A stretch of 39,897 nt of DNA from Folioceros fuciformis (taxonomy: Eukaryota). The translations under genes were made by a program, and so were the position numbers. How positions within the stretch are numbered: position 1 is the first letter of the stretch; every line of letters begins with the position of its first letter. Under the pieces are notes generated by a model, which was not told the origin of the DNA, made no database searches, and saw only the letters and a list, made by a program, of their open reading frames with translations. This document shows positions 4,661-37,600 of this stretch, in pieces. The stretch spans positions 1 through 39,897 of the forward strand of contig JBNGIO010001946.1 in assembly GCA_049999805.1 (NCBI GenBank), written 5' to 3'.

Positions 4661-4891
4661 GGAACTTTCCCAAAAGAGCCTATGGAAGATGGAGAAGGAG
4701 GGGGATAAAGAAGGAAGATCATGGTACTTGAAGAGAATAAAAAAGGAGGAGGAGGGAGCTTCAAAAGAGGCTGGGTAGCTTGAGAGGGATGGAAGAGGTG
4801 AGGGGGGCATGGGAGGGCTCTGCCAAAAAGAATGACGGTTTAAGAATCCCCGGATTTTCATCATGTGGTCTCTTGTACTTGCATTTTCCTG

Positions 4892-5205
4892 TCCTCTAGT
4901 TGCATGTATTTTGGTCTCCTCTAGTTGCATGCATTTTGGTGTCCTCTAGTTGCATGTATTTTGGTCTCCTCTAGTTGCATGCATTTTCGTGTCCTCTAGT
5001 TGTATGTATTTTGGTCTCCTCTAGTTGCATGCATTTTTGTGTCCTCTAGTTGCATGTATTTTGGTCTCCTCTAGTTGTATGCATTTTTGTGTCCTCTAGT
5101 TGCATGTATTTTGGTCTCCTCTAGTTGCATGCATTTTCGTGTCCTCTAGTTGCTTGTATTTTGATCTCCTCTAGTTGCATGCATTTTCGTCTCCTCTTAT
5201 TGCAT
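4892..5205. repeat. Minisatellite: 12 full copies plus a partial copy of a 25 bp unit, organised as 50 bp A/B dimers
   Basis: Alternating TCCTCTAGTTGCATGTATTTTGGTC and TCCTCTAGTTGCATGCATTTT[G/C/T]GTG with an exact 25 bp period from 4892. Confidence 0.97.
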
Positions 5206-5224
5206 GGAATACCATACTAATCTA

Positions 5225-16074: not shown

Positions 16075-19000
16075 TTAAGGCTGTTGGGCAGGGGCGTAAA
16101 CCGTGTACCCATTGTGCCCTAGTGAAAACCCCGAGCACTCCGGGGACAGGTGGTGACTGTGAACCAAGGGGAACCCCATGAGAGTGTCTAGACCATTTCT
16201 TAGACTGCTACTAGTATTGCCACCAGGCATGCCTCCATTGCCCATCGGCCAGTAGTGTGTTGGCACCCCCTCCAGCCCACCATGCTGGCTATGCAACCTG
16301 CCAAGAGACGTGTGGGTGAAAGGTGCTTGAAACCGGACCGGTTCCCGAACTCCGTTGCTCACTCTCTCGTCACTTACGTGAAGCCGGACGCGCTCGTCCT
16401 CAGACCCCCTTCCTCTCTCTCCTCTTTCAGAGTCACCCACACCATTGGATGTTACTTCTGGACGCAGCTGCCCGTAGCCCAGTTTGTGCAACGGCGACGG
16501 TAAAGACATCTGCCGCATCTGCCGATGGAAGGTGGGATTCGATTGTTGCTGAAGCATTGCAAGAGCTTGGGTCAGACCCTGGTCTTCATCCAGCAGTTCG
16601 TTGATGATGTCAAGATGAGGGAAATCCTCTGGACCTGCAACTGTACTCAGCGCACTAACCACTGTTTCAATGCACCTGGAAGACATCACTCCATTCTCTG
16701 CACGCCCCTGAAGCTGCATTGGATGGCGATGAAGATGTTGCGGAGGTTGTCGAGAAATATGTTCCTGAGTTTGGACCCGAAGATTTTGAACCCGCTGCTG
16801 TATAACAGCGTCAGAATGCATTGCTGAATCTTGCTGTAGCTGTTGTACCCGCTCCTCATGATGTTGCTGCTGTTGGTGCAACACTTCAGGAGTAACAGTC
16901 CCAAAAGTCAAGAGACTTGCTCCTGTGAGAGCTGTGGCAGAAGAAATAGGAGCGGACGAAAAGGCTGGACCAGAATTTCCGTCCCCCTTGAGGCCATTAC
17001 CCATCACCGTGGCATGCCCTGGTCCAGTAACTACCTTTTGAGAGGGCGTTGGAGGTGGGGAAGGCATCCCTGCAATCCCAGAAATACCAGAAGCCGTGTG
17101 CATCGCCTGGTTGCTCACATATGCGTACCCATTTACACCTGAATTGGGCACAACAGAACCACTGCTACTCTGCACAGAGTGAACTGAAGAACTCGACGAG
17201 GAAGCCCTCATCTTGCCAGCTGCTGCATTCCTGTATGATGGAGTAACTGGTGGACTTATTGTTGTTGAACCGCTGACCGAAGAGCCCACATCAGTTCCTG
17301 CAAGTCTACCCGCAGCACTCAGAGAACGTGACAGAGAAGTGGGATGATGAGCATTAGCCGGTGGAAGCCCTGGGCGAGAACCAGATGAACTTCCAGGCCT
17401 AGATGTTCCCGTGGATTGCACCACTGGGGTGGAAGAAACGAGCACTCCTCCACAACCAGCAGAAGTCTCCTCAATCCCAGAGTTTGGCAATCCAGTTATA
17501 GGTGAAGTTCCAATTCGGGGAGGCCGGGTGGAGTCAACACTTCGACTTCGAACTGGAGCAGGTGATCGTATTGGCTCAGTTTTAGTTGAACCCTGAACAT
17601 AGCTGTTGTCTCCAGGAGCTGCAAATGAGGCACTTACCCCGACTACAGCGGGACTACCTGTCTGGTCACTTGTCAAAAGCCTGCTAGACCTCTGGCTTCC
17701 CCCACTTGTACAACTCTTATCAGGATGGAAGGGCTCTCCTGAGTCTGATCTGGTCAACGATGTAGGCACGTCTGTCCTACCCTCATCGGCTGGGGTCTGG
17801 CCTGCTGAGCTGGTATCACACACTCTAGCTAAGTGATTCTGATGCGCCGAATCATCTACCTTAACACGATTGTTGATGCCATCACAACCCAAGAGGTGTT
17901 GATGCAAGCTAACTTGCAATCTTGCTATTTCCTCGTCCTGCAGTATAATATGTCATGTAAGAGTGCTGCCCAAGAGCATCTAAGACCTATGACACATAGA
18001 ATGGACAAGCAGTAACACCTCTGGGTTATTACACAAACCTTCTCTACTAGACGCTGTTCTAGCCATCGGACTCGCACCTTTAGCGAGAGAATCACAGTCT
18101 CTGGATCTAAACCTGCTGAGCTGCTGCTGGCTTCTGCATTGCCGCTGGTGTCCAAACTACCAGCGCGCATCAAGCCTTCTGCTTCTATAAACCGCCCATC
18201 ATTGTCATACGCATCAGTGTCTATCCTGATCCGTCCCCTGTATCGAACACATAAAGTCAGCACCACGAAGAGTGTAAGTGAGAGGAAAATGAACTTCACA
18301 GTGCGCTTCAGACTAAAACTAAATAGGATACTTGATAATTTTTTAAATCAACCAAGTACAGGACATAAACTTCAACGCACCATACTATCTGCAGCATGCT
18401 CTCTATTAAACCGGGGCCATATTAGACAGGCATAACAAGTACTGGAATCAATCCAAATTGAAAGTGTTAGGTACCTGCTAGATAAGGTGTGATTCTGTTC
18501 TGGCAAATTAGGTCTTCCATATGTCCCATTCATGGTAGGCCGCACTGATTGTAGAGAGTCTGATGAACAAGTTGATGAACTGTCATCTAAAGCCGCTTGA
18601 TTCTTCCTGCCAATCCTCCCACTTCTTAAAGAGGTATCTTCTGACAAAGCTCCGCTGAAACTTGCTTCCATCCCATGCTGAACATACGAGATTTCCCTGT
18701 CCCAGGATGCACGGTCTAAATCCCCATCTTCTAAAGCAGGAGCTAGGGTCCCCACAACATCATCTACAGTGTCCAACCCGCTTAAATCATCATCATCCTC
18801 CATTTCGGCAGTGACCAGAGAAACTGGTTCCCGTTGTTTTGTAAGATGGTCTTTCGACACTCGGCTGCCTACTAACTCCTGCCTTTGTCTTTGCTCCTGC
18901 TCTGACCTGCTTCTTTTTTCCTCTGCTTCTTTATCTTTCTCTTTGCGGTCTTTTCTCCTTTGTTTCGCCTAAGGACAAAAGAGCAGGTAGACCCGATGAT

Positions 19001-22000
19001 TAGGCAAGGCTCCAAGGGCATCACAAACAGAAATTGCACCAAAATGAGCACACAATACACCAAACTTCCTCAAAGCAATCAGTCCTGATCTAGGTGTAAA
19101 GACAGAATTGAACTTCTGAAGATGATCAACCATGAAACACTGGCCAACCTGCTTTTTTCTGGACCGTTTCTCCTTCTCAGCCGCCTCACGCTTTGCTCGA
19201 AGCTCATTTTCCGCCTGTCCCGCAGCTTCTTCTTCCCGAATAAGCTCCTCTTGTCGGCTCAGAGCAACAGCCTCTCTGTATGCGACCTCCACACGATTAC
19301 TGCAGACCAGAAATTAGACACGAAGCATGTGAAGCGTGTCACTTCGCACCAGTGTTGCAGCACCCACCCATGACTTAAAGAAGTGCCATCTCTGTCATCT
19401 TCTGTAAAGTGACAGCCCCTGTCTTACAACACTCTAGTTTGTTCGTTGACAAACGCTCAGCGTGAAAAAAGGTCTGTATAAATGCTGTGGCTGTCCTTAC
19501 GACCATGAAAGAACAGCCACAACCGGTGATAGTTCCTCGACTCACAAGATTAAAAAAACAAACTGCATCACTACGTTCTCCTGTAACAATTGACATGCGA
19601 AAGGCTCCAACCATGCTAAAATGCTAAACTGCAGTAAAAAAAATCTCGAAAGAGCCTAATAGCACCAGAAGAAAGTGTCCATTCCATGATTCCAACAAAA
19701 CCCAGCACACTAAACATGGAAGTAACAGGAAAAGTACCTGAAAAGGTGAGCTAATACAAACATTTCGACTGTGCGCCTTCCCAGCTCTGTCAACCTCCTC
19801 TCGTCACGTTCCACGGAATCTCTCCCAAAGTCATCTCCCGAGCCACCATCCTGCAGCGAAGACGTGATGCAGAATGACTGAACCAAAATAGAAATTGCTG
19901 ACGCAACTCAGACATGACAATACTAATGATAAGACCGACCACCCTTTGTTCTACTGCCAGAGGTTGCTCAGCAAAATCTCAGTGTCTACCATACCCTGGA
20001 TGAGTATAACAGATAACACTCCGTACCTTTGTCCTGTTCTGGGGGCCCTTGTCATCCTTGTAGGGGGGTAGTGATTCGCTTGCAGCTCTTTCAAGTAAAG
20101 CAAGGACATCACCAGCCAATACAAAGGTATCCTTGTCAACCAAGACGATGGGGTTTACTGTGTCTTCCATTTCTACTCCATTTATTTTTCCTTTCTTGTT
20201 TCTGCTGAGGTAATCCAATGCCTTGCACCCACTGTACAGGGCATCCATGACCAGCGTGGATGTAACTTCCTTCTCATTGAAGAATCGCTTCACCACAGCT
20301 TTCAGGATAACATCTGCCTTCTCCCGAGAAAGACCACAGCGACGGTCTTCTTCTACTTTCAACCAGAAAGCTTGAAAACTGTGAAGATTCTATAGAGATT
20401 TAGTGAACAAGAACTCAAGTCATGAGGACAAGCTGCCCTTGTCCTGACATCCTGAGAGACCTTTCCCTAGTGCAGGGAATGACGCTAAGAAAATTCTAAA
20501 GCCTTAAAAGCCTTCACATTACAAGGACTGATATCTAACAAGCTAATTAAGATAGCACACCTGATCCGCCTGACTATGAAAACAAGGTTCTATAACCAAT
20601 TAAGGACACTTACACCAAGGACCAATAGAGCAGCGAGCTCGTTAAAGTGGCATACCTGGTCCACCTGACGGTGTCCTCCATGAGCTTTCCCAACTTGTCC
20701 TTCTTTTCTTCCACAAAACGGCGACAAATGCCTTCGACATTGGTTAAATAGACCCGAACCAACTCCCTTCTGTACTGACAGTCCAAGCATCGAAAAGGCC
20801 GGTGAGGGTTCTCCCTGCACATCAGAAAGACAGATTATTTAAATATTTCCAACCCGACGGCGTAAACAGACCCGTACGGGGATACAACCCGTGTCACCTA
20901 GTATGATGAAAAAAAAATCCTCACACATGTTGCAATGGTTTGTTTCCAGCACACGGACAGAAAGAAGCCTGCAACTCAAACAATGTAGCTTCAAAACACC
21001 TGATAACTTGAACTTGAGCTTTGATGACAAGAGTATCAGCAACTGTGAATCCATCCAGGACCTTCGACAGTTCCATAAACTTCTTCCATCCCCAGTCATG
21101 TTCCTTTTTGCAGAACCGGTGTAAAGTGTCTACAGATAGGGCAGTAAGAGTAAGCAGAGCAGGCAGAATCGTGTACCTAAAAAAAGGAACTGCAATGCCA
21201 AAAGCGCTAGCCACAATAACTGCCAAAATCCGTTGTCACAGCTCAAGTGAAATGCATGCTTGCAGAACTCACTTGACCCACCTGAGTACTTTGATTTTTT
21301 AGGGTCCTTGTTCACAACAGCAATCGTGAACTGAGCAAAATGACTCCAACCTGACCACCAACAACAACAAGGCCAGCATGGTCCACCAGGTTAGAGAAAC
21401 TGCCGTCGTGCAGGCCCCCGTTACCGGAGAATCTGAAGTCAGTTGCACCCTTTCTTCTCGAGCACTTTTCCAACAGTCAAAGCAATGCGCATCTACACAA
21501 CAAGAAAATGAAACACAAGGCTACCTGGAAGAAGTTTGTCATAATCTGCCACACATAAGAATAGCGAGAGGTGATTACACACATCGCAGCCTTGAGGGTA
21601 TACTAGGATATACCTGCCAAGAAATGCAGACATTTCCATGTCCCGAGATGGAGAGAAATTAAAAATAAAAATAAAAAACGACCAGGAGCCCACCAACAGC
21701 GAGACTGGCCAAACAACAGATCCCTTACCACTTGTATCCCCCAACTTCAAAAACGTTGCTCCTCAATTCCCTTTTGCTGATCTCGGAGAAGTTCTCAATC
21801 TTCCAGGTGAATTTTCCATACAAGTCAGACGGTTTCGGCCCTGCACAACAAAAAGAGCCACCCAAAGGATGGTGAATGAATCCAGCGTCAGACACTCCAA
21901 CCATGATTTTGCACGACAGACAGACTGTTTGGACTTCTCCACTATCTGGTTCTGAGATAGTGATACATCTGCGGTATTTGAATGCACAACGAAAACCTGG

Positions 22001-22948
22001 ACTACTTCCTCGAGTTCGAGATTTCACCCAGCCTCCATCCATCCACGAACGAGTTGCCAGGATATCACGGGAGGCTACCGAGGACCGAACGCTCGGACAA
22101 ACATGGGGAAGGCTTCCCGACCAACCACGCACCAACGTCACAGGGCTCGTCCACTAACCTAAAACTGACAGGTTGAAGAATTCGCTAGGGGAGGCTCTAC
22201 GGACAGAGGACAAAAGACACCCAGATTGAATGCCTGGCCACCCTAGACAGTGACTCCGACGGCACTCATTGTTATGTAAGACCTGTTTCAAGTACAGCTA
22301 AGATGCTTTGTCCTATAACATTTGAGAATGGATCCCACATTCATCTCCTCGTTCAGCGTGGGCAGACATTATACCCTAAGCGGAACAAGACAGCAGAGCA
22401 GGGCCAATGGCGCAGCAGCTAAAGTGGGCGGCGATCTTGCAAAAACTGTGGAAGAAACAGAGGAAAAGGGCCGCATTTACAGGCGAGCCATAAATTGAGT
22501 CCAAGAAGCAAGCTGTAGCGACCACATGATCCAAGTGGGCGTGCGTGGCAAGAGCAGAAACGCATTTGAAACTCAATTGAAGGCCACCATGGCGGCAGTC
22601 CAATGGTAGCCCCAGGCATCCTCCGCAGCCCGTGATGGAGAACCTAGAGGCCGACCCCTGCTGCGGCGCATTGGGAGCGACAACCCGACCCAGACCCATA
22701 CCCCGGGAGCAGCCCGGGTGACACATACCCGGCGCAGAAGATGCATTGGAGTCGTCATCGTCGTCGGTGTCCCAGTAAGCCGGAGAAGTTGAGGGAGGCG
22801 ACGGCTCTAGCTGCTCCCGCGAACGCCACTCTGCCACCGATTCCGCGGCGTGGAACTTGGAGGCGAGGGGCGGGCCGGGGTCGGAAGGCACGGGTGCGGG
22901 AGCGGGTGCGGGTGCGGCCGCATAGTCCCCGCGCGAATGGCTGGCCAT
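16075..22948 (-). CDS. MATH/TRAF-domain protein, homologue of Arabidopsis TRAF1a/TRAF1b (MUSE14/MUSE13)
   Basis: AEWRSREQ..PPSTSPAYWDTDDDDD, GPKPSDLYGKFTWKIENFSEISKRELRSNVFEVGGYKW|YILVYPQGCDVCNHLSLFLCVA, KKEHDWGWKKFMELSKV, RPFRCLDCQYRRELVRVYL, KEVTSTLVMDALYSG, EVAYREAVALSRQEELIREEE coiled coil, C-terminal FPHLDIINELLDED; multi-exon, ATG at 22948. Confidence 0.95.
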
Positions 22949-23360
22949 GGCGCCCACGCCCTAGCGGCCGTCGAAGAGGGTGGCGCTGCTGGCTGTGTGT
23001 GCCCAATTTGCGACCCGCAAGAAGACGTTGTGAGGTACGCCAGCCAGGCCTGGGTGCAGCTGCTCCCGATGCTGCTGCTGTTGATGCTCTCCTGCAGTGC
23101 TGCGCTCACTGGTCCGCCATGCCCTAGGCGCGGGCCAGACTCCAAATAGCCCACAGCGACATAGGCGAGGCGGCAGATCAGGCGGCGCAGGAGGCGGTGC
23201 AATGAGCAAGTTGCGCGGGAGGGGAGGCGTGAGCGCGGTCGGGCACGATGCCAACACACCTTATGCAAAACCAGGCACCCTGGCTGGCTCGCTGGAACCG
23301 GAATGGCTGCCTGCACCAGGCTCCAGGACAACGGGGGAAAGAGAGGCTTCCAACCAAGTC

Positions 23361-23456
23361 ACCAGGACCAGGACCGGGAGCGGGGGCGGGAGCGGGAGTG
23401 GAACCGGAACCCAGACCAGGACCAGGACCAGGACCAGGACAAACACCAGCACCAGG
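23361..23456. repeat. Hexamer microsatellite (ACCAGG/GCGGGA-type) in the predicted 5' leader of the TRAF gene
   Basis: Runs of ACCAGG interrupted by G-rich hexamer variants, keeping a 6 bp phase. Confidence 0.85.
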
Positions 23457-23556
23457 GTTCCCGCACTGCGCACCACACCACTGCACAGCACAGCCTGCCG
23501 ACTAACGACCCCTCCTTCCACACTCACGAATTTCACACCTTGTCCTTTGCGTTACG

Positions 23557-23564
23557 TATATATA
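23557..23564 (-). promoter_or_regulatory. Candidate TATA box of the TRAF gene
   Basis: TATATATA at the boundary between the GC-rich leader and the AT-rich intergenic block. Confidence 0.45.
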
Positions 23565-23989
23565 CTTTGCAATCACTCTGTAACTCTTATAATCCCGCTC
23601 TCTCTCTATTAAAAAACTATTTGTTCTTGTTTAGGACGTACATCGCATCTCTAGAAGTAGCTTAAACACTTACATGCTCCGTGCAAGTCGAATGTCAAGT
23701 ACCATCACACATTCTGTTCATGTCAAATATAATAAATTTTTCTATTATTTTATTACAACACCATCTAGATGCACAAAGTCTTCATGGGCTCTCAAGAGTT
23801 GAGCTTGAAGTAAGAACTTCAAAAGACTAATCTTCACAACTTAACAACATCTTGGTGGCTAAGGTGCCTTAGTGTGCATAGGACATTCTTTTGCCATATA
23901 TCTTCAACTCTTTGGGTTTGTAGCATGCTACATCCTGCTCCCTCGAGGTTGAGACTTGTAGCACAGTAAGTGAAAACATCACAAGCTAT

Positions 23990-24640
23990 GCAAAGCCCTC
24001 AACTTGCTAATCCTCATGCAATGAGAGACTTTTAAACTCCAATTTTTCAAACCTTCCATCACAACTCGCAAGCTTCATAAACATTATATCCCATGCTCAA
24101 AAATGTAGATAACCCATACGATTGAGAGTCCTTCTTACTTATGTAAACTTTAGTCTCACAAGATGCTGATGGGTGAGGGAAGGATATCTTAGCTTTGCAT
24201 TCAACACTTCAAACTCAAACAAATGTAAACTAAGATATCTAACTTCATTGTGTCCGTGCTCTGTGTTTACCACTTACTCAAATGGATATAAAAAAATCAT
24301 CACGAATATCAAGTCTAATAAGCTCCAAATTGTTGATGTCTCTATCATGACTTCAACCTTAATTATCTACATGAAGAAAATGCACCCTGCATATTTAGAT
24401 TACAATAATGATAATAGGAATAGATTTTTCTGAATTACATATGATCATTAATGCACTTCGAATGGGTACTCTAATACAAACTTTAACACCTACTTCCAGT
24501 ACATCATTAAGTTTTTATGGATGACACTCTTAGAGTCTGTGGACCATGAAAGTGTCAATACTAAGCTAACCAGCACGAAAGTTGGTTTCAATGATGGTAG
24601 AGAGATTAAGTAATCAACTAGATTAGAACATTTGGACAAG
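23990..24640 (+). mobile_element. Highly degenerate LINE (L1-like) reverse transcriptase fossil
   Basis: Broken frames give, in RT order, AKPSTC..(~RPISL), FINIISHAQ (~IIS..Q), LKWI, VFMDDTL at 24511-24531 (~FADDT) and VIN (~L.IN..KS). Many stops; AT-rich. Confidence 0.45.
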
Positions 24641-24834
24641 CTAATTATTTAAAAGGACCCGCTTCGCTTCCGGACAATGACAAGATAGGACATGGTGGTC
24701 AGTGTGTCTATGATAATGTATCTATCTCTAGCTTCTTCCTTATTGCAAGTAAGTGACTAATCAACCAAGCTTGGGCTAATCACACAACCAGCCTTCTTCA
24801 TTTATAGCATTATTTCACATGCATTTTTAATTAT

Positions 24835-24852
24835 TATATATATATATATATA
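24835..24852. repeat. (TA)9 microsatellite
   Basis: Direct read. Confidence 0.95.
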
Positions 24853-25845
24853 TTATAAAATCAAAATTAATGTACATACGAGAAAATTAGAAGCCCATAT
24901 TGCAATAAGAACTAGCAAAACATATGTAGATGCAACTGGATATACACTTTGGAACCCATTGAGGAGTCATATTTAAATAGATTTTAAGTAATAAATACTC
25001 TTATTTTTATTTAAATATAATGATAAATAATTCTATAAAATCAATGAACAAAGATTATACTATGTGCCCAAAATAAAGTTCTTTAAGGATTGATTGGATA
25101 TTTAGCAAAGCATGTCATGGGAAGTGAAATAATATTCATGTAAATTTTAATCCTATGCATCCTATCAATAAAAATCATGTAAATGCTACTTTCATACATT
25201 ATGAATTCCAAAAACTTATCAAGTGACAATTTTCTTTTCAATGTAAGAAAGTTGCCATGAGTTTCTTGTATTTCTTTCTTTCTCTTCTTCTTTATCCTGA
25301 TACACATACCACTTGAACATTTCATTGAATTTTATAAATACTCATATATAGAATTTTGGTGTAAAACATTTTATATAACAATAACAATAACAACATAGTG
25401 GGAGGAAGTGAAAGCCTCATAGTCAAGCTTCACATGAGATTTGAAGTAAAATGAGTAAAATACCTATTGCAACATTTTGTTACTCATGAGTGTGTGATAC
25501 ATGTCTTCTTGTTGAAAAGTGCAAACTTTTCATTAAGATAATCTAAAAAGTTCATGTCCATTGGAAATTCATCAATATAAAAATTAAATTGTGTAACACA
25601 TGCATCAAACCCCAAGCTTTCTTGAAAGAAGAAGACAAAGAAGAATAAACATTTGACATTGATCTTACTTGAAGAGTATAGTTTGAAGCATGAAAGAACT
25701 TACAATATTTAATGAAGAGCACATGAGCATAAGAAGCACTTCATGAGTTAGCATATTTAAACTCTAAAGTCCAAATGATGACTATGAAGTCCAAACACAT
25801 AAAAACTATGGATCATAAGAAAAGAACTCTTGATGTTCATGTGTT

Positions 25846-27696
25846 TTAGCTACCCAAAGCACTTATACTCACACTCACCACAAATCCAGGACAACCCAAA
25901 GTATGGTTGATGTATATTATTCTCTCTGTCTCTAATACTTGGATGCAATCTATGGGGTTTAAAGCAACATGTAAACCTAAAGGATAATAGAACCCTCTGT
26001 GTACAAAAATCTCTGTACTACACAATGACGAATTTTCTGCAAAATAATACAAAGAAAAGTGGGAGGTCAAAGGATCAAAAGCATAAGAGATGATCTTTCC
26101 ACACACAGCTTGTGGATAAGTTCTTGCAAGCTTCTTGGATAGAAGCATATTTATTTCACCATCAGGATTGAAAAGAGATTGCTCCACCATTGATCCTGTT
26201 TTATTAAGGAATGCTTTATACTCCCAACCAATCCAAGATTGAATGTGCTCGTCTGCAGCTGACAAGACCTCGTCAACTTTGTCCTTGCTTGTCCATGAAG
26301 TAGGCTTTAACTTTTCTTCACCATCATCTTTATCTGTCTTGACTCCTGAATGTGTGCCAAATTTTGAAGACCATTTTGACTTTCTGGCTAGATTGGCGAT
26401 GAAAAACTCTGTGAGCATAGCACCACATCCAAGTCTTCTACTTTCCTTTACACGCTCCGAGAAAGCTTGTATGGGGCTGAGATTAGGAGGACTATAATAA
26501 TGATAGCTCAGGACCGTGCGATTTCGAAAGTTGTTGCCTCCTGGAACGGTAGCAAAACCACAGGTTAAGTCATCAAATGTGATTGTTTCAATGAAAAGGA
26601 TTCGGCCCGGATCCATAGATCGCACTGCTGTCTGCAACTTGTCGTAAAATTTTGCCAAATTTCTGTGATCAGCCACCCCTGGAAGTAATAAAGATGGATG
26701 TCTGAAAAAATTACCTGGCCATGGCTCATTGATAAGCTCATAGCCTAGTACCCCAGCTTGGTCATGAAAAGCATAAGCTACAGTTTTCCAGTACCGGGCT
26801 AAAAGATCACTCCATCCCCAACGATTTTCGTATAAATCTTGGAATGCCCTTGATACTGCATATGAGAAATAGTACCAAAACCAGTTATGCTTACCACATT
26901 GCTCTGGATGTCTCTCTTTTCCATCACCTTCAAATTCATCAATTGGCCATCTTGCGCTTAAAGGCTCTGGAAATGTCTGTGCATATGGGATTAACTTCCC
27001 ATCCAGAGTACTTTCTTCCATTTCCCCTTGACCAACCATCTCCAAAATAGTTTCATTGTTTGCCAACCCCTCCTCCTCCTGTTTGTGAAAAGATGTCTCC
27101 CTGTCTAATACCCAGCCGGGTACACCTTCACCACAAAACTCAGAGGTAAAGAGATCTTGGTGGAATTCAAGCAATGAATAAATTCCAGCCTTGTGAAGCT
27201 TTTCAACAATAGACCTCATGATATCCAAATATGTAGAGTTAAATTGTCCTCGAACAGGTTCGACTCCAGGCCACATGATAGCTAATCTCACAACATTCAT
27301 ACCCCATTGCTTCAACAAAGCAATGTCTGTGTCACAAAATGACATTTGTGGATCAAATTGTTCAATGTGAGGGTGCCACGGACATCCTTTCATCACAACA
27401 TTGAGGCCATGAAAAATCCGCTCCCTTCCCAATTTATCACGAATCTGCCCCACTTCACCCACATGAAATTCTGGCACAAGTGTGCCTACAACATTCAAGT
27501 GGTTTAAAAGCACCATAAACCCTAAAACAATCCCAAACTCTACAAAGACAAAGTTTGCCCTACCGTAAACCTCACATCGTGCAAGCTTCTTCAAAAGCAA
27601 TATCTCTGCGCTCATGAAATCGAACATTGTGTACCATATCATGAACATTGAGAATGACAACAAAATCCCCTGCTTTGTTGAAACTTGGATTATCAT
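25846..27696 (-). CDS. Glycoside hydrolase family 5 endoglycoceramidase-like protein (GH5_27-like) with C-terminal GH5_C domain; intronless
   Basis: GRERIFHGLNVVMK, WGMNVVRL.IMWPGVEP.RGQFNSTYL, FHQD..EFCGEGVPGW, acid/base YELINEPW, SYHYY, nucleophile MLTEF, WIGWEYK, LARTYPQAVCG. Hydrophobic N-terminal segment. First ATG at 27696; the ATG at 27615 (MSAE) is an alternative. Confidence 0.9.
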   Translation of the reverse strand: MIIQVSTKQGILLSFSMFMIWYTMFDFMSAEILLLKKLARCEVYGRANFVFVEFGIVLGFMVLLNHLNVVGTLVPEFHVGEVGQIRDKLGRERIFHGLNVVMKGCPWHPHIEQFDPQMSFCDTDIALLKQWGMNVVRLAIMWPGVEPVRGQFNSTYLDIMRSIVEKLHKAGIYSLLEFHQDLFTSEFCGEGVPGWVLDRETSFHKQEEEGLANNETILEMVGQGEMEESTLDGKLIPYAQTFPEPLSARWPIDEFEGDGKERHPEQCGKHNWFWYYFSYAVSRAFQDLYENRWGWSDLLARYWKTVAYAFHDQAGVLGYELINEPWPGNFFRHPSLLLPGVADHRNLAKFYDKLQTAVRSMDPGRILFIETITFDDLTCGFATVPGGNNFRNRTVLSYHYYSPPNLSPIQAFSERVKESRRLGCGAMLTEFFIANLARKSKWSSKFGTHSGVKTDKDDGEEKLKPTSWTSKDKVDEVLSAADEHIQSWIGWEYKAFLNKTGSMVEQSLFNPDGEINMLLSKKLARTYPQAVCGKIISYAFDPLTSHFSLYYFAENSSLCSTEIFVHRGFYYPLGLHVALNPIDCIQVLETERIIYINHTLGCPGFVVSVSISALGS

Positions 27697-27979
27697 CCAA
27701 GTTTCCACGCTACAGAATTACGCGAGAGACTTCATCCCAAACGTACACTAAAGAACATCTTGCTTTGTCATCATCTACCAGCATAAAGTAACTGCAAATT
27801 GAACGGTGGCCTCCAGCCAGATATACTTTCAAAAGAAGAGCATATGACTCCAACATAACTACGGATCGGTGCAAGCTAGAACGCACCGGGACCTACTCCG
27901 AAGATCCATGTCTTCGTCTAGCACGAAGTCCAGACGTCCATACTTCGGACTTGGCTAGATCGAGAGACGACGAAAAAAA

Positions 27980-27996
27980 GGGGGGGGGGGGGGGGG
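27980..27996 (+). repeat. G17 homopolymer preceded by A7, between the divergent GH5 and myosin genes
   Basis: Direct read. Confidence 0.9.
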
Positions 27997-28606
27997 CGTA
28001 CAGGGGCTCACACCAACCCAAAACCTAAAGAACGGGAGGCGTGGGTTTTTTGGGTGCGGCAAGGTGAGGGGAGGCCAACCCCCCGAGGCATGCAAAATGT
28101 ACGGAATTTATGCATAACTGAGCAATGTTGGCCAAGGTAGAAATTTTGAAAAAGGGAGGTGAGAATTCCCTCTCACGTTTGAACTTGGGGTACCCTGGTG
28201 CGGTGACGCCATGATGGTGATGTCCGTCCTTTAGGGCTGTTTGTGGCAGACACAGAAAGTTGTGTTTGTGGGCTGGCTGTGGGACTGTGTAAAAACTCAC
28301 AGTCCGAGTCTGCGTGTTGGACTGTGATGGAGTGATGAGTAGTGCGTGCTCTCAGCTGTGCCCGGAAATGCCACTTGCATCCGCATCCGTGAGCCTCACG
28401 CTGCGCCACTCCAATTTGTGAAATCAATTTGCACCGACCAGCAGTTCTGTCCGGACTCACTACGCCAGCTGGAGGCAACCACCAAGCCGCTGCAGCGCCC
28501 ATGGATGTCTAGGCTGCCGCTTGCTGTGTGGCACCAGAGATCCCAAGAACTGAGCCTCAAAATTCAGACTGTGGGAAGAAGATCAAGGGTGGCTCGGAAG
28601 CTCTGA

Positions 28607-31600
28607 ATGGTACCCGCTCGCTTGCAGACGGTGATTCATTCCTGGCGGGCACCGGTCCAGAGGCGCCTTGCTAATTCCGCGGATCTCTACTTGTGCGCCC
28701 ACTTGGACTGGATGAATTCCTAGCCCGCTCCGGAGATCCATGTGACTGGCGTCAGTACCAGGATCTGACGGTCAGCTGTGGGCGGGAGTCTGTGCTGAAG
28801 CTCACATGCACAGTTGACTCTGATGCAGGGTCCGAGCACCAATATCTTAGTAGGCTCTCAGGTCTGGGTCGAGGACAATGAGAAGGCCTGGGTGGACGCT
28901 GAGGTTGTCGAAATTGTCGGCAACCAAATCAAAGCTCGCACCAGAGATGGAAAAACGGTGATGCCCACTTCCTGGATCCTTGCGCAGGCTGATTTCCCTG
29001 CTTTCTTTGGGTCTGTTGAGCTGCACGGTGTTGTGTTTTGGCTCTGGACTTCGGTGGTCCGGGCGGTGCTTTCGTGGGGATCTTATTTCTGGCCCAACCT
29101 TGCCTTGTGTGTGATTCTGAGGTTTGAATTTCATTTTTGCCTCAGGTTGTCTCGGCTGCAACCAATGTGCATGCCAAGGATGTGGATGCACAACGGGGCG
29201 GGGTTGACGACATGACCAAGCTTGCCTACCTGCATGAGCCGGGCGTCCTCTACAATCTCGCGAGTAGATATGAGCTCGATGAAATATATGTGAGTGTGTA
29301 GTTAGCTCAAATGGAGGTTAGCACCCAGTGTGTGAGGTTTCCATCTTCCTGGAAGGTGAGCACATGTTCTGCTGCCTGGTTGTGTTCATTTTGTTTTCTC
29401 TAAGCCACGGTTGTGCTGTGCTGCAGACATATACCGGGAACATTTTGATAGCCGTCAACCCCTTTCAAAAGCTCCCACATCTGTATGATGCTCACATGAT
29501 GGAACAATACAAAGGAGTAGCTCTGGGAGAATTGAGTCCTCACGTCTTTGCCGTAGCAGATGCCTCCTACCGGTGTGTGCACATGACTTGGAACAGCTTT
29601 CTTGTGCAGTTCTTGTGTATGATTCACGCCGGGGCTAAGGTGGCATAATTTTGTAGGGCAATGATTGATGAAGGAAAGAGCCAGTCAATATTGGTGAGTG
29701 GGGAAAGTGGAGCAGGAAAAACCGAAACCACAAAATTGATTATGCAATACCTAGCATACATGGGGGGTCGTGCTGCAACTGATGGCCGAACAGTTGAGCA
29801 GCAGGTTCTTGAGGTACTGTGTAACTCCCTAGCTATCCCCTTGAGTCTTGAAGGCATGAAATTTCTGCTCAGTCCTCCTAATGATTCCTAAGCTTCGTGG
29901 TTTGCCTCTTCTGATGTTGTTTTACCACTCGTTGCACACAGTCAAACCCGTTGCTGGAGGCTTTTGGAAATGCAAAAACGGTTCGGAATGACAACTCCAG
30001 GTACTTTCTCCTGTCGAGTGTGAGGACAAGTAGGCACTCAAATCTTTCTTCGCAAGAAGACCGGTGTTGTGCTGGTTTCTAACATTTTCCCTTTACCCGT
30101 TACTTCCCGTTTGTATCTCAGTCGGTTTGGCAAGTTTGTCGAAATCCAGTTTGACCGGAGTGGAAGGATATCAGGAGCCGCTGTCAGGACATATCTACTG
30201 GAGAGATCCCGGGTCGTACAGATCGCAGACCCAGAGAGAAACTATCACTGCTTCTATCAACTGTGTGCGTCCCCTGAGGTAACACAATGCCACAAGGTGC
30301 TGGAACCAGAGCGTTGCCGCATGTGGTTGCAGGCAAACGACCTTTTGCACAATGTTATGTGCCTGTAACGGGCTGGTATCGCTCTAAAAGTCTGCTGACA
30401 ATGGTGTAGGATGCTGAGAAATACAAGCTGGGGGATGCCAAGTCTTTTCACTATCTTAATCAAAGTAACTGCTACGAGTTGAACAATGTTAACAATGCAC
30501 GTGAATATGCTAATACTAGGAGGGCTATGGATGTTGTGGGAATCAGCCTTGATGAACAGGTTTGTCTCTACATGTGTGCATACTTGGACCTTTGTCAACA
30601 AAGTCCCTTTGCATGGTGTTTTGGGCCCACGAATGAGGCCACTCAGAATTTAACTTCGGATGCTGCATTGTAGGAGGCCATCTTCCGAGTTGTAGCTTCT
30701 ATTTTGCACCTGGGCAATATCAAGTTCAGTCCAGGGAAGGAGGCAGATTCTTCCAAACTTCATGATGCTCAATCGGAATTCCACCTTAAAGCTGCTGCAG
30801 AGTTGCTGATGTAAGACATGTTTTTTCCTCTCTTCTATTCTATGCATATCGCTTACACTTCCCCAAATTCAGAAACTATGTTTCATGTGTCGTAGGTGTG
30901 ATGAGCAAGGCTTATTAGATTCACTTACAACTCGAACCATTAAGAGTGTGAATGAGTTAATTACCAAGACATTGGACCCTGACGCAGCAACTATCAACCG
31001 TGACACTCTGGCAAAGACTGTCTACTCCAGGCTATTTGATTGGTCTATCTATCAAACCTTGGCCTTTTGGAATTTCTTGTTTTCCTTCTGATTGAAACTC
31101 TTTGATCTCAATAGAGTTTGCAGGCTGCTGTAATTGATAGAGTCTTTGCAACTCACATTGTTGTCTCTGTCGTGTGAATTGCAGGCTTGTTGATAAGGTA
31201 AACAATTCTATTGGGCAGGACTCTGATTCCAGCACCTTGGTTGGTGTTTTGGATATTTATGGCTTTGAAAGCTTCAAGAGCAACAGGTGATGTCATCTAC
31301 TCATTTTGTCCCTAAAACTTAGGAATGTGCGTTTTGGTGGACGTCATAAGGGTGTGTAGCTCAACAGGTTCCCTTGACTGGTTATGTAAGCTTCTGATTG
31401 TAATTGCTGCCACAGCTTTGAGCAATTCTGTATCAACCTGGCGAATGAAAAGCTGCAGCAGCATTTCAACCAGGTATGTTTTGCAAGGACGTGCATTCAA
31501 CATGTCATCCTCGTTTGGTATTGCCATTCCCTCTGAAGGTTGATCAAGAGAACTGTGTTTTGTGTTTCTGCAGCATGTGTTCAAGATGGAGCAAGAGGAG

Positions 31601-34600
31601 TATGAAAAGGAAGCTATCAATTGGAGTTATATAGAGTTCGTTGACAATCAGGATATCTTAGACCTTGTCGAAAGGGTGGGGTGGCCAGGCATTCATGTTG
31701 TTGTTGTGCTTGTGCTGAGCCTGGGTTGTGATCGCTGGTTGGCATGTTGACATATTGTTTGCTGCCCTACTCAAATCAAACAGATGTTCAACTGGCTGGG
31801 TTTGGAGGCAGCTGTGAACTGAAGCTTAAGAGTGCTTGTGCTCTGTTGCACCTGTGTTGAGAGGAAATATGCCAACAATTTGCCAGTGACCCATTTCTAT
31901 TTGCCTGCTCATTTTGGTGGTCGGTTGCTGTGGCACAAACTTTTCAGAAGCCTGGAGGGATTATTGCACTTCTGGATGAAGCTTGGTAAGCCCACGGGTT
32001 AGCTTCCTGCACATGTTTAATATGAGATGATTAGGCTATTGGTTTAGCCTGGACATTCCTATGTCAGCTGTCATTTGGCCTGGGAAAGCTTTCACTTATT
32101 AGTTGTGAAACGTGTGCAGCATGTTTCCAAAGTCGACGAATGAAACATTTGCCACCAAATTGTTTCAAATGTTTAGAAACCACAAACGCTTTAGTAAACC
32201 AAAGCTTGCAAGGACTGACTTCACTATCAGCCATTATGCCGGAGATGTAAGCCTCATCTCTTGCAAAACTAGGTGTTGTTGGATGTGTAGCTTCCTGACA
32301 CGTTATTTGTGTGCAGGTCACATACCAAACAGAATTATTCTTGGAAAAGAACAAAGACTATGTTGTTGCAGAGCACCAAAACTTGTTAGGCTCATCAATG
32401 TGCCCTTTTGTTGCAAGCCTGTTCCCTGCGTCAACTGATGATTCCCGATCATCATACAAGTTTTCTTCAATTGGCACTCGTTTTAAGGTTACCAAATGTA
32501 ACTTGTACTCTGTAGCGCTTGAGAGAGTCCCTCTGCATCCCGCTTGGCTGATAAAGTGCTTGTGACTTTGTTGAAACAGCAACAATTGCAGCAACTGATG
32601 GACACGCTGAACCAGACAGAACCACACTATGTACGCTGTGTCAAGCCAAACATGTACAACAAACCTGGACGTTTTGAGAACAACAATGTGCTGCAACAGC
32701 TTCGTTGCGGGGTAAGTTAGTTTTGTTGCTTGAAGCCAAGCAGGAAACGTTTATGTTTAGTTCCCCTAGTTTCCATCCTTCATACCGCAACCCTCAAGTC
32801 AAAGGCGTTGATATGGATTGCAGAAAGTTTTTATCTCTAAATGCCCCTAGTGTTTGGCGTGTTGTGCAGGGTGTTCTTGAAGCTGTGAGAATCAGCTGTG
32901 CTGGATATCCAACTAGAAGAACTTTTGATGACTTTCTTGATCGTTTCAGCTTATTGGCACCTGAGGTTCTGGAGGGAAAGTAAGTTCCTGCACCAGTTTG
33001 TATTTATTTGATTCGTGTCCAGAAACTCTTGCACAACCACTGCATTGTAGAGCACACTGGATTGTGAAATGGACTGCACTTCATCAGACTGCTGCAGAGC
33101 ACCAGTCTGGTACATTTATTTCCAGGCTTTTCGTTGTATCTATAATTCTCTGTTGTTGGGCAGTTATGATGAGAAAGCGGCAACAGAAAAGCTTCTCAAG
33201 AAAATGGGTCTCAGTAACTTCCAGGTAAGCTCAAGCATCTGTGATCCTTCTCGTTGATGAGGGTACCAGTGGTTCTCTCGATGCATAGGTGGGTGACCTT
33301 GGCTGCTTGTTATGGTAGTTTCGGTTTTAGCTGAATTTTGCGAATTTGCAGGTGGGAAAAACCAAGGTCTTCCTTAGAGCTGGTCAAATGGCAGAACTTG
33401 ACTCAAAGAGAGCAGAATTGTTAAATAATGCTGCAAGAGTAATCCAGCGACGCGTCCGCACGTTTCTTGCACAAAGGAATTTTGTTGCCATGCGAAAGGC
33501 TGCCATTTGTATCCAGGCTCACTGGCGAGGTAAAGGAAATGTGCTGAATGTGTTTGCAATCCTGGACTGGTGTAGGGAAACTTTAGCATGATTTACGTAA
33601 TTTGTTTTGAGTGCATGCAGGCAGACTTGCCAGAAAGCAGTATGAGAACATGCGGAAGGAGGCAGCAGCTGTCTGCATTCAAAAGAATGTTCGGATGTGG
33701 CAAGCACGTAATGCTTACAAGAAAATGCGGAAGGCAGCAATTGTCATCCAGGCAGGCGTGCGTGGGATGTTTGCTCGTAAGGAATATCGGCTGCGAAGGC
33801 AAACAAAGGCTGCGATCGTTATTCAGGTGTGAACCTGCTTCGAGAATCGTTTGTTCCGGTCTTCAAAGTTGTGGAAATGTTATTTATGGTTTCCCTTTTG
33901 CTTTCAGAAACACTGGCGTGGCTACAGGGAACGTTCGTATTACAAGAAGTTACAGAAAGCTGCTATTACATTCCAGAAACACTGGCGTGGAAGGGCTGCC
34001 AGGAAGGAGCTCAAAAAGCTTAAAATGGTATGTTCATTTAGCTTTATTGTTGGGCATTGTATGGTTTTCTTCAATATTGCCTTTTGTAATTCTCTGTGAA
34101 TTCTGTTTAGGCTGCAAAAGAGACGGGTGCATTGCAAGAAGCGAAGACCAAGCTTGAGAAGCGGTGTGAAGAGCTCACTTGGCGCCTGCAACTTGAGAAG
34201 CGCATGCGGGTACTGGATTATTATTAATATTTTTCCTAGTCCCCACGTAAACCTTAAGCATGCCATGACATTGCTTCAGGTGAATGTAAGCCAATTTCTG
34301 ATTCTGTATGTTCTGGCATGTAGACTGATGCGGAAGATGCCAAAGCACAAGACATCTCTAGACTTCAACTATCGATGCAAGAGCTGCATGCAGAACTTGA
34401 AGCAACGAAGTTGTCCCTCATCAAGGAAAGGGAGACAGCGAAACAGGTGGTAGTCCCTGTCCCCAAGGACGTGCCTGTTGTAATAGAGAATGGTCCAAAG
34501 ATGGAGAAGCTGTCACAGGAGAATGAGAAGCTGAAGGTAAATAGTCTCAATGGTTGTAGAACGGTCGTGCCATAGGCTCCTGCCAATGCGGCTTCAAGTC

Positions 34601-37600
34601 AAAATTCAGCCACTGACGTTGTGTTGCTGTTGCAGAGTCTGGTCGCTTTCCTGGAGAAAAAAGCAGCAGATCAGGGTTCAGAGCTTTCGCAACTCAAGAA
34701 GATCAGTGAAGAGAGACTGAAGCGATCAGAGGAAGCAGAAACAAAGATTGACCAGCTTCAGGAATCTTTGCAAAGGTCCACACCTTTTCTATCTCACGGC
34801 ATGGCCTCTGCTCCTGATCCTCAAAGATGGCTGCATGGTTACACACTCACATATTTTCTTCACTTTTTGCAAATCAGACTGGAGGACAAGCTTTCGAATA
34901 TGGAGTCTGAAAATCAAGTATTGAGGCAGCAGACCCTTGTGCTTTCTCCAACCAAGGGCATTTCAAATCGGTTCAAGACAACTGTCTTTCAGGTTCGAAT
35001 AACCTCAGAAGTAATAGATTATTCATGCCAGTATCTGGCACGGAGATATACTCAAGGCGGAGTAGAGATGGAGAAACTAGGTCTAACCTTCTTCAGTCTA
35101 GAATTACAGTAATTAACTAGTGAATCCAGGCAGAATCAAGTTTGCCGCATTGTTTCTTGTGAAACTGGCTCATGCTGTCAGCAATGAGTCAGGGTTGACT
35201 GACTGACTTTGCAGTTTGCAGCATTGTTTAAGTAGGACTGTTTCCTCACATTTCGTTGTCTTTTAATGCCCAATACAGAGAAGCCCGGACAATGGCCTGG
35301 TTGCAAACGGCGAGCACAGGACATCACCTGTAAGTTGTCCTTGGTTTGTTAGTGTCCTTTGGCTGTTATGTCGGCAGGTATTGATGAATCCATTTCTGGA
35401 TGTTGTAGGAAGCTCCTACTATTGCTCAAATTGAGAGGGAGCAAACCGAGTCTGAGCAACGCCGTCAGAAGTGGTTGATTGACAAGCAGCAGGTCTTGTG
35501 CTTGTCAACATAGGCTCTGCATTCACATGATAACACATCTCATCTTTTACGTTCATCTGTATTTAGATACCCTCCTCACATTTTCCATCTCTCGTTGGTG
35601 TGGCAGGAAAATCAAGATGCTCTGCTTCAATGTGTGATAAAGGATGTTGGGTTCAGCCACGATCGCCCAGTCGCTGCTTGCATGATCTACAAATCTCTCT
35701 TGCAATGGCGATCATTTGAAGCTGAGAGAACAAATGTCTTTGACCGTATCATTCAAACCATCGGCTCAGCCATAGAGGTTAGTAGATGCCAGGAGATCAG
35801 TGAAAATGAAGGAGATGAGGTGATGACAACTTCCATCCAGCAGTAATGAAGACCTCCTTGTTTCTGATGGTGTGGGTGTTGCTCGCAGAGTCAAGAGAGC
35901 AATGATGTGCTGGCTTATTGGTTATCGAATACATCCACATTACTCTTTCTGTTGCAGCGTACACTGAAAGCTAGTGGTGCTGCTGGAGGTGCCCCTAAAG
36001 GACGTCGCCCAAGTTCAGTTACCTTGTTTGGACGCATGACTCAAGTAAGCCTGAGTCGTATGTTTATGTGTTGAAGCATGCCTGTTGCTGTACTCTGCTG
36101 CCCATCCGGAAGGGAGGTATTGTTGCGTTGAACCACAAGTACGAAAATGGTTTTGACTGCAGGGTTTTAGGTCATCTCCATCTGGAGGTGGTGTACCTTT
36201 CGGAAATGGAGGAATTGGAGGGCTGGATATTTTGCGGCAGGTTGAGGCAAAGTATCCTGCTTTGCTGTTCAAGCAACAGCTCACTGCGTATGTTGAGAAG
36301 ATGTATGGGATGATCCGTGACAATCTGAAGAAGGAAATTACGCCATTGCTTGGTCTCTGCATTCAGGTCTGCAGCAGACTTGGGTCATCCCGTAGTTCTT
36401 GCAGCTTCACCTTTTATTTTGTTTTAATATTTGGGCGTTTCGCTGTGTCTGATTGTCTGAAAGGCTCCTCGAACATCAAGGGCAAGTCTGAGCAAAACTT
36501 CGTCTCGATCTCCAAGCACTGCTGCGACAGCCCAGCAGTTGAGCAGTCACTGGAACAGCATCATCTCGAGCTTGAGTTCCCTCTTAAGCACAATGAAAGC
36601 CAATCATGTGAGTTTTTACTTCTTGACATTCCTTTCTCTTGTGGTTTCTAGAACGTGGACCTTGGTTGCCTGTCGCTCACTGTTTAGCAAAATGTTTGTG
36701 GCTCCAGGTCCCACCATTCCTTGTCCGCAAGCTTTTCACACAGATATTCTCATTCATAAATGTACAACTGTTCAACAGGTAAACACGTGTTCCTACGTGT
36801 TTATATTTGATCAGCTGGTAGTTTTCCTTATGGTCTATCGTCTTTGTGTGTGCTATGTGCCAGCCTTCTGTTGAGGCGTGAGTGCTGCTCGTTTAGCAAT
36901 GGAGAATATGTCAAAGCTGGGCTCGCAGAATTGGAGCACTGGATTTACGAAGCTGGAGAAGAGGTAAGCAGCTTGTCTGTCAGAAATTGGCTGGGCTACG
37001 CGTGGTAACTGAAAATTGTTGTGTTCAAAAGCACGGGCTTTTGAAACTGTTTTGACGCTCTGTTTCTTGTGATGTCTGCCTTGAACAGTACGCAGGTGCA
37101 TCATGGGATGAGCTGAAGTACATAAGGCAGGCTGTTGGTTTCTTGGTATGTAGCTTCTGGTGGTTGGAGCTGTAGTACACGACTTTTACGATCATGTCTG
37201 AGTGCTCACTGTCAACTTCCATTTCTTTCTCTTACCAGGTTATCCATCAGAAACCCAAGAAGTCACTTGATGAGATCACCCATGATCTTTGCCCAGTAAG
37301 TGCTTAATTGTTCTGGCTTGGTGCTTTCTTGCAGTTGAAATCTGCTGAATGTAGTCTGCGTCTGGAAATTGCTATTGCTCACATGATCCTTCAATGAACA
37401 GGTGTTGAGCGTTCAGCAATTGTATCGCATCAGCACTATGTACTGGGATGATAAGTATGGTACACACAGTGTGTCGCCTGAGGTATGTATGAGCACCGAT
37501 ATCTTATGGCGGTTTATTACCAATTTGTCGAAGGATGTGTGTAAAGCTGCCAGGTAGATTGGCATACTAATTCTCTTCCTTACTAATGATTGACTCAGGT

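Follow-up and report, generated by a model that had tools for sequence, protein, structure and literature searches.

A single-exon endoglycoceramidase-type GH5 gene in the land plant Folioceros fuciformis, probably inherited vertically within the streptophytes

Characterised eukaryotic endoglycoceramidases (EGCases; subfamily GH5_27 of glycoside hydrolase family 5, EC 3.2.1.123) include the jellyfish and Hydra enzymes. In the part of the subfamily classification on which we draw, GH5_27 consists of eukaryotic EGCases, represented by five sequences from Metazoa and Fungi, the bacterial EGCases make up GH5_28 and GH5_29, and plant members are not among the sequences described (Aspeborg et al., 2012; PMC3526467). 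A search of the literature, with subscription-only papers outside its scope, found no paper on a plant EGCase; moss and liverwort proteins are already labelled endoglycoceramidase or endoglycoceramidase-like in public databases, and the gene described here joins this known family. It lies in a stretch of 39,897 nucleotides of the non-seed land plant Folioceros fuciformis (GenBank assembly GCA_049999805.1, contig JBNGIO010001946.1, positions 1 to 39,897), the whole of which is called the window below, and an earlier note, made from the letters of the sequence, had singled it out as a candidate horizontal transfer, with a microbial eukaryote or a fungus as the source, or as a retrocopy. The evidence assembled here points elsewhere: the locus is very probably a functional, single-exon nuclear gene, vertically inherited, that encodes an EGCase-type hydrolase of the secretory pathway.

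The gene consists of one uninterrupted open reading frame (ORF) running from ATG to stop on the minus strand (25846-27696), which the ORF listing and the translation give as 616 codons and a protein of 616 amino acids, P0001; measured from stop to stop, the same frame has 623 codons. Homologues aligned to it by tblastn each yield a single high-scoring segment pair (HSP), namely P0002 over residues 27-614, P0006 over 13-563 and P0004 over 17-656, and since these segments are unbroken the coding region is without an intron relative to its relatives. The ORF and the collinear HSPs bear out the intact single exon of about 616 codons that had been read from the letters. An in-frame GT...AG pair that can be picked out by eye, from W195/V196 to Q240/T241, is unsupported, and splicing there would delete the conserved VLD. 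The parts of the gene are given below with reference to the alignments A1, which includes streptophyte, cnidarian and chytrid rows, A2, the land-plant alignment, and A3, and to an AlphaFold2 (AF2) model of P0001 built from A1.

25846..27696, minus strand: complete single-exon coding sequence of the EGCase-like GH5 protein P0001, 616 codons plus stop (ORF list, collinear tblastn)
27475..27540, minus strand: hydrophobic N-terminal segment, about residues 53-74, FVEFGIVLGFMVLLNHLNVVGT (alignment with moss leaders)
26197..27444, minus strand: GH5 (beta/alpha)8 catalytic domain, about residues 85-500 (PF00150, profile matches to EGCase I and II, AF2 and Foldseek)
26989..27099, minus strand: variable insert 1, about residues 200-236, between WVLD and FPEPL, a low-confidence loop
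26722..26730, minus strand: N323-E324-P325, with the predicted general acid/base Glu after beta-strand 4, invariant in A1 and A2
26404..26412, minus strand: T429-E430-F431, with the predicted nucleophile Glu on beta-strand 7, invariant in A2 and A3
26281..26391, minus strand: variable insert 2, about residues 436-472, after the TEFF strand, of variable length in streptophytes
25870..26124, minus strand: C-terminal beta-sandwich domain, residues 525-609 (PF18564), all-beta in the AF2 model

Both domains score above their curated Pfam cut-offs, PF00150 (GH5) with E 1e-20 and 74.8 bits against 23.5, and PF18564 (the GH5 C-terminal domain) with E 5.2e-10 and 40.1 bits against 22. Among PDB sequences P0001 comes closest to EGCase I (1e-25), EGALC (6JYZ, 2e-17) and EGCase II (6e-13), and a profile search improves these values to 4.6e-42, 6.9e-29 and 1.1e-20, respectively; the first six of the 21 sequence matches are EGCases, and mannanases account for none of the 21. 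When the predicted fold is compared with Foldseek, ranks 1-15 are all chains of EGCase I, EGCase II or EGALC (E 4e-28 to 3e-21, TM-scores (TMt) of 0.70-0.78), a second tier is formed by fungal sterylglucosidases at about 1e-19, and ordinary GH5 cellulases and endoglucanases appear only from 3e-12 or weaker. All 500 counted Foldseek matches have E<=0.001, each one among those listed is a GH5-type glycosidase, and the matches in the ESM Atlas are endoglycoceramidase and GH5 clusters. Judged by its sequence and its modelled fold, P0001 is an endoglycoceramidase-type GH5 protein and not one of the mannanase or glucanase type, a family call that the earlier note had made and that Pfam, the PDB sequence matches and Foldseek uphold. 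It is nearer to eukaryotic proteins named endoglycoceramidase (33-40% identity) than to bacterial members (24-31%).

The AF2 model has a mean predicted local distance difference test score (pLDDT) of 70.4, with low confidence at the N-terminus and in the two insert loops (pLDDT below 50 over residues 202-233 of insert 1 and 436-471 of insert 2) and block means of 83-94 in the C-terminal domain (residues 521-610). Strands and helices alternate in it, and E324 follows the strand 316-320 while E430 lies within the strand 425-432. The conserved residue set of GH5 comprises an Arg, a His, the Asn-Glu pair with the acid/base, a further His, a Tyr, the nucleophile Glu and a Trp. Residues R137, H179, N323, E324, H399, Y401 and W491 are invariant in A1, where E430 is absent only from the truncated Marchantia paleacea model, and the two catalytic Glu motifs noticed at the outset, NEP and TEF, are both invariant among the land plants of A2. 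In HMMER alignments the NEP of P0001 coincides with that of EGCase I, EGALC and EGCase II; against EGCase II the local alignments do not extend over the TEF strand, and the nucleophile E430 is assigned by the general rule for GH5 and clan GH-A. E324 would serve as the acid/base and E430 as the nucleophile of a retaining beta-glycosidase, which would split off a sugar head group at its beta-glycosidic link to a lipid aglycone.

A word-seeded search across 5.8 billion proteins gave 339 relatives, of which the best 120 are listed. Streptophytes head the listing, with 12 named proteins (Marchantia, two; Riccia, two; Calypogeia and Ceratodon, one each; Diphasiastrum, three; Closterium, three), and the streptophyte relatives, Physcomitrium included, are 48-64% identical to P0001, the top match being P0002 at 64% (72% over the kept columns). 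The two species of Marchantia are M. polymorpha (P0003, 'endoglycosylceramidase') and M. paleacea, the three Diphasiastrum paralogues range from 48 to 61%, and the cluster of P0005 includes Physcomitrium patens XP_024373108.1 (P0272), labelled 'endoglycoceramidase-like'. The non-plant relatives come from chytrids, cnidarians, sponges, choanoflagellates, amoebozoans, Acrasis and Tetrahymena and share 33-40% identity with P0001 (E of about 1e-83 to 1e-108). No fern or seed-plant protein is among the best 120 of the 339 matches, which stem from a word-seeded search and not from a genome-wide tblastn; fern proteomes are present in the database searched, where they are matched by the neighbouring MATH exon.

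In the careful maximum-likelihood (ML) tree (50 rows x 503 columns, LG+C20+F+G4; support as ultrafast bootstrap/Shimodaira-Hasegawa-like approximate likelihood-ratio test), P0001 and P0002 form a pair (2 rows, 100/100) within a land-plant clade of 16 rows (100/99), in which mosses (6 rows, 100/100), liverworts (5 rows, 100/99) and lycophytes (3 rows, 100/99) are each monophyletic and the lineage of P0001 stands outside all three. The algal sequences branch outside the land plants, and the addition of Closterium and algal-type sequences gives a streptophyte-like clade of 22 rows (99/98), which in two trees is nested in no fungi, animals, amoebae, ciliates, protists or prokaryotes. The transfer or retrocopy that headed the earlier note is not borne out, P0001 lying inside the land-plant clade and in no donor group. 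What is found is essentially the pattern expected of descent along the species tree, with orthologues in a zygnematophycean alga, liverworts, mosses and a lycophyte and the algal rows outside the land-plant clade, and both this distribution and the ML trees favour what the note had held in reserve, namely that the gene was anciently retained. The streptophyte clade would already have been in place in the ancestor shared by land plants and zygnematophycean algae, from which the gene would have been inherited vertically into mosses, liverworts, lycophytes and the F. fuciformis lineage, with an apparent loss in ferns and seed plants.

The position of this clade among other organisms bears on an older event, a single transfer from a eukaryotic microbe, a fungus or a bacterium into the ancestor of Zygnematophyceae and land plants, followed by vertical descent, of which the lack of introns would be a relic. 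The family is patchy among eukaryotes, and the best 120 of the 339 relatives include no named chlorophyte, red-algal or earlier-diverging streptophyte-alga protein; it is abundant in soil-type bacteria, where 451 of 472 pattern-matched stretches in a scan of prokaryote genomes encode a relative; and the gene is intronless here and, going by the gene calls, in P0002 and in moss-type proteins from JGI/IMG. All of this would suit such a transfer, but no donor is identified, the best prokaryote matches reach only 24-31% identity, and differential loss of an old eukaryotic gene explains the patchiness equally well. A quick tree with 10 prokaryote rows as outgroup recovers the streptophyte-like clade (98) as the sister group of the remaining eukaryote rows taken together (87), inside none of which it nests. 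The split between prokaryotes and eukaryotes has a support of only 13 in that tree, because of which the root position is not trustworthy, and the Nevskia and Binatia rows are long-branched and of odd composition, possibly as a result of ORF extraction. We consider an ancient transfer unlikely, and continue with vertical inheritance as the reading of the locus.

As a separate observation from the prokaryote scan, the best match (31%, E 6e-71 against 1e-40 or weaker for the others) lies on a 48-kb contig of a Desulfosporosinus metagenome-assembled genome (MAG), L081. It has no continuous ORF over the match and was left out of the rooted tree; a frameshift in the gene or contamination of the MAG with eukaryotic DNA may explain this.

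P0001 is strongly constrained: the other 14 land-plant rows agree fully in 164 columns, and P0001 keeps 163 of these, the sole difference being A520S; its terminal branch in the ML tree measures 0.22 against a median of 0.43. A decaying pseudogene was also considered as a description of the locus and was rejected.

As regards the age of the single-exon state, P0002, to which P0001 is closest, is likewise one continuous ORF, called in one piece at 619 aa on a contig of 19,143 bp, and the JGI/IMG moss-type proteins of 499 aa extend from the initiator Met and leader through the C-terminus, on contigs of up to 18,992 bp. Provided that the P0002 and JGI calls come from intron-blind gene finders, the single-exon state would be old and shared, and not the mark of a recent retrocopy; either ancient intron loss or an ancient intron-free origin may be its history. 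A retrocopy, or intron loss mediated by reverse transcriptase, would have produced the single exon from the spliced mRNA of an intron-bearing plant gene, in this lineage or earlier, and could be read from a single exon that stands amid neighbours with at least 12 exons and sits in an AT-rich block. However, the 3' end is followed by neither a poly(A) remnant nor an A-run, no direct repeats flank the gene, no parent copy is known, and the gene has its own upstream region, head-to-head with a class XI myosin gene; the strong constraint and the short terminal branch speak against it as well. The continuous ORF of P0002 means, moreover, that any retroposition or intron-loss event predates the divergence of P0001 and P0002. 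An origin as a retrocopy or by such intron loss is in our estimate very improbable, and vertical inheritance of an old single-exon gene is retained.

The surroundings of the gene within the window are as follows.

14248-14715, plus strand: exon fragment of an NAD-dependent epimerase/dehydratase
16078-22948, minus strand: MATH/TRAF-like gene with at least 12 exons (12 separate tblastn HSPs)
23600..25845, no strand assigned: AT-rich 3' flank (32% GC), from the GH5 stop to the 5' end of the MATH/TRAF gene, with no Pfam domains and no structured repeats
27697..28148, no strand assigned: head-to-head intergenic region between the GH5 and myosin XI genes, 452 bp, GC 0.50, with the 5' end of the myosin contig at 28149
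28149-37005, plus strand: class XI myosin gene (Myosin_N, motor domain, IQ, DIL), head-to-head with the GH5 gene
38398-39896, minus strand: protein kinase gene (Pkinase/PK_Tyr_Ser-Thr, three adjacent ORFs), running off the window end

The two genes that border the GH5 gene, MATH/TRAF-like and myosin XI, are typical plant genes. The 625-codon last large exon of the former (16078-17952) is of low complexity and ends in a conserved 'FPHLDIINELL'-type motif; its best matches are proteins of 1200-1350 aa from Marchantia, Riccia, Ceratodon, Physcomitrium and Sphagnum (36-41%, E down to 1e-66), and ferns match at 28-30%. Taken with the place of P0001 outside the moss, liverwort and lycophyte clades, these matches are most simply read as a bryophyte lineage, probably hornwort, that has no annotated proteins in the database searched. 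The myosin gene is broken up into many small ORFs between about 28800 and 37000. The intron-dense character that had been ascribed to the neighbours is confirmed by the 12 HSPs of the MATH gene and by the many small ORFs and two GT..AG introns of the myosin gene.

The GH5 ORF has a GC content of 0.41 and a GC content at third codon positions (GC3) of 0.38. GC3 is 0.48-0.52 in the MATH exons, 0.48 in the Pfam-matched parts of the myosin, 0.46 in the epimerase fragment and 0.59-0.67 in the kinase at 38.4-39.9 kb, and the gene is indeed AT-richer than its neighbours, as had been claimed, albeit modestly. GC3 declines along the ORF from 0.48 to 0.31, into the 32% GC block at 23600-25845, so that the AT-richness is partly regional and does not form a sharp foreign island. 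The low GC3 and the lack of introns need another explanation, for which regional AT-richness, low expression or ancient intron loss are candidates. The claim that the gene stands next to DNA derived from transposable elements did not hold: none of the 45 flank ORFs of at least 35 aa (23085-25907 and 27569-28351, both strands) matches a Pfam family at E<=0.01, and no long terminal or inverted repeats or target-site-like duplications bracket the gene, the only repeats found between 21000 and 30000 being chance-like matches of 14-19 nt. Remnants of non-autonomous transposable elements may nevertheless be present in the flanks. Upstream of the gene, at 27973-27996, the minus strand reads 17 C and then 7 T; GC changes from about 0.40 to about 0.54 at precisely this point, and no listed short-read contig bridges this tract.

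The composition and the homopolymer tract at the GC shift are what could be brought forward for a recent horizontal transfer, a contaminant or a misassembled foreign segment. Against such an origin stand the position of P0001 inside the land-plant clade and orthologues in four other streptophyte groups. The nearest non-plant proteins among the best 120 of the 339 are at most 40% identical, a metagenome scan with the land-plant alignment yielded 80 loci of 26-39% identity, none of them plant-like, and the prokaryote scan gave 31% at best. Sequencing runs from two further studies under the same species label also contain the GH5 ORF at 99% identity or more, in one of them together with the myosin transcript. 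We attach next to no probability to a recent foreign origin, and the gene is taken further as a native plant gene.

Elsewhere in the window, the 5' end of the MATH/TRAF gene (22600-23400) has 65-73% GC and GCGGGA/ACCAGG-type short repeats. A tandem array occupies 4880-5206 (25-nt unit, 13 copies; 50-nt super-unit, 94% matches), two-copy repeats of 75-85 nt lie at 1450-1606 and 3970-4117, and a search of the 39,897-nt window with Rfam gave no match.

The run with the myosin transcript, X3, comes from a separate study under the same species label. It contains an 8256-nt myosin contig that starts at 28149 and from which two GT..AG introns have been removed (28957-29144 and 29290-29426), so that X3 contains spliced RNA, and three unspliced, genome-collinear contigs within the GH5 ORF (26226-26866, 27201-27377 and 27413-27579). 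All four contigs are at least 99% alike to the window, and none lies in the intergenic flanks examined. The first of the three retains insert 2, cover reaches upstream to codon 40, and the stretch 26867-27200, which holds insert 1, is without cover. These contigs give a faint indication that the GH5 gene is transcribed at a low level and unspliced. In the DNA runs X1 and X2, which are from one sample, contigs match the window up to 25643 and 26079 (also 25693, 26605, 27473 and 27478), inside or just after the GH5 ORF, and continue with up to 255 unlike, GC-richer letters; graph branching, a chimeric contig or a structural variant could account for these ends.

The hydrophobic segment at about residues 53-74 is matched in the alignment by the short leaders that the Physcomitrium, Ceratodon and JGI moss-type proteins carry directly before a conserved EF/EYHV motif, and the AF2 model has a helix at residues 47-66. 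The segment is probably the h-region of a signal peptide or a signal anchor, through which the protein would enter the secretory pathway. The N-terminal extension is unusually long if M1-M28 is the start, and longer than in Marchantia P0003 and Physcomitrium P0272. Insert 1 varies in length and sequence across most streptophyte rows and is short in Riccia fluitans P0013; neither the Closterium P0017 model nor the cnidarian and chytrid rows of A1 have it, nor does one moss-type group (P0277, P0010). In alignment A3, the moss-type group P0277, P0281 and P0010 is without the entire insert 1 (about 65 residues), which its close relatives Ceratodon and Physcomitrium (P0006, P0272) have; either a dispensable loop has been deleted, or some transcripts or gene models leave the stretch out.

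The integrity of the ORF, the family, the fold, the phylogenetic position and the constraint are thus observed; secretion, a lipid-linked substrate and a biological role we infer from them in the following outline. The likeliest substrates would be glucosyl- and oligoglycosylceramides (oligohexosyl-ceramides), the plant's own or those of associated microbes, and activity on steryl glucosides or oligosaccharides may occur. As a more speculative proposal, which we regard as doubtful, early land plants and the algae closest to them may have kept, or anciently acquired, a secreted intron-free EGCase that was lost in ferns and seed plants and that would release ceramide and oligosaccharide from their own glycosylceramides or from those of fungi and other microbes on their surface, in a sphingolipid-based turnover or a defence/symbiosis role with no counterpart in flowering-plant models; on this proposal, the inserts specific to streptophytes might fit the enzyme to glycosylceramides of plants or fungi.

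Several points weigh against a vertically inherited, functional and secreted EGCase. GC3 is about 0.1 below that of the immediate neighbours, and the gene is intronless amid intron-dense genes; the N-terminus is atypical, with a hydrophobic segment at least 50 residues from M1; and the deep order among the land-plant lineages of the tree is an open trichotomy (88/88). That ferns and seed plants apparently lack the gene is concluded from the best 120 of the 339 relatives given by the word-seeded search, and the eukaryotic matches at 33-40% are uncharacterised or automatically named proteins. The depth of X3 on the GH5 ORF is low, at 2-4.4 against about 150 for the myosin, and that this run is RNA-like is a guess backed by two spliced joints. 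EGCase activity would follow from homology, at 18-22% structural-alignment identity to the characterised bacterial enzymes. The main complex sphingolipids of plants, the glycosyl inositol phosphorylceramides (GIPCs), are not plausible EGCase substrates because their head group is joined through inositol phosphate.

The candidate transfer thus becomes an ordinary vertically inherited gene, a useful negative result from which it can be seen that the lack of introns and a GC content below that of the neighbours are insufficient to call a transfer in a non-seed plant. The lineage pattern comprises Closterium, mosses, liverworts, a lycophyte and the lineage of the window, with a seeming absence from ferns and seed plants among the best 120 of the 339 relatives. 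If the enzyme is active on glycosylceramides, it would supply a step of sphingolipid catabolism that is missing from Arabidopsis-centred models.

Among known systems, the best matches of solved structure are the Rhodococcus enzymes EGCase I (5CCU, 5J14), EGCase II (2OSW, 2OSX; GH5_28) and EGALC (6JYZ; GH5_29 according to the part of the classification drawn on, PMC3526467). The C-terminal domain and the NEP segment of EGCase I align with those of P0001, whereas these enzymes are bacterial, share 18-22% identity with P0001 in structural alignment and are without the streptophyte inserts. The preferred substrates of the Rhodococcus EGCases, gangliosides and the 6-gala series, are lipids not known from plants. 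The fungal EGCase-related sterylglucosidases, Cryptococcus Sgl1 (7LPO) and Aspergillus SglA (8EXD), also belong to GH5 and also act on glucosides whose aglycone is a lipid; with second-tier fold matches (about 1e-19, TMt 0.46-0.51, 13% identity), a weak sequence match (4e-6) and far larger chains of 670-727 residues, they are more distant from P0001 than the EGCases are. The GH5_27 EGCases share with P0001 the combination of PF00150 and PF18564, the NEP and TEF motifs and an N-terminal hydrophobic leader, and the cnidarian and sponge proteins named endoglycoceramidase are 35-36% identical to P0001 across some 85% of its length (E 1e-91 to 1e-100). The plant proteins differ in forming a clade of their own (99/98), sister to the clade that holds the cnidarian proteins and not inside it, and most streptophyte rows, Closterium P0017 being an exception, have the two variable low-confidence inserts that the cnidarian and chytrid rows are without. 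The closest counterparts are Marchantia polymorpha P0003 and Physcomitrium patens P0272, whose names, 'endoglycosylceramidase' and 'endoglycoceramidase-like', are automatic annotations, and which share the clade, the domains and the inserts of P0001 at 55-61% identity.

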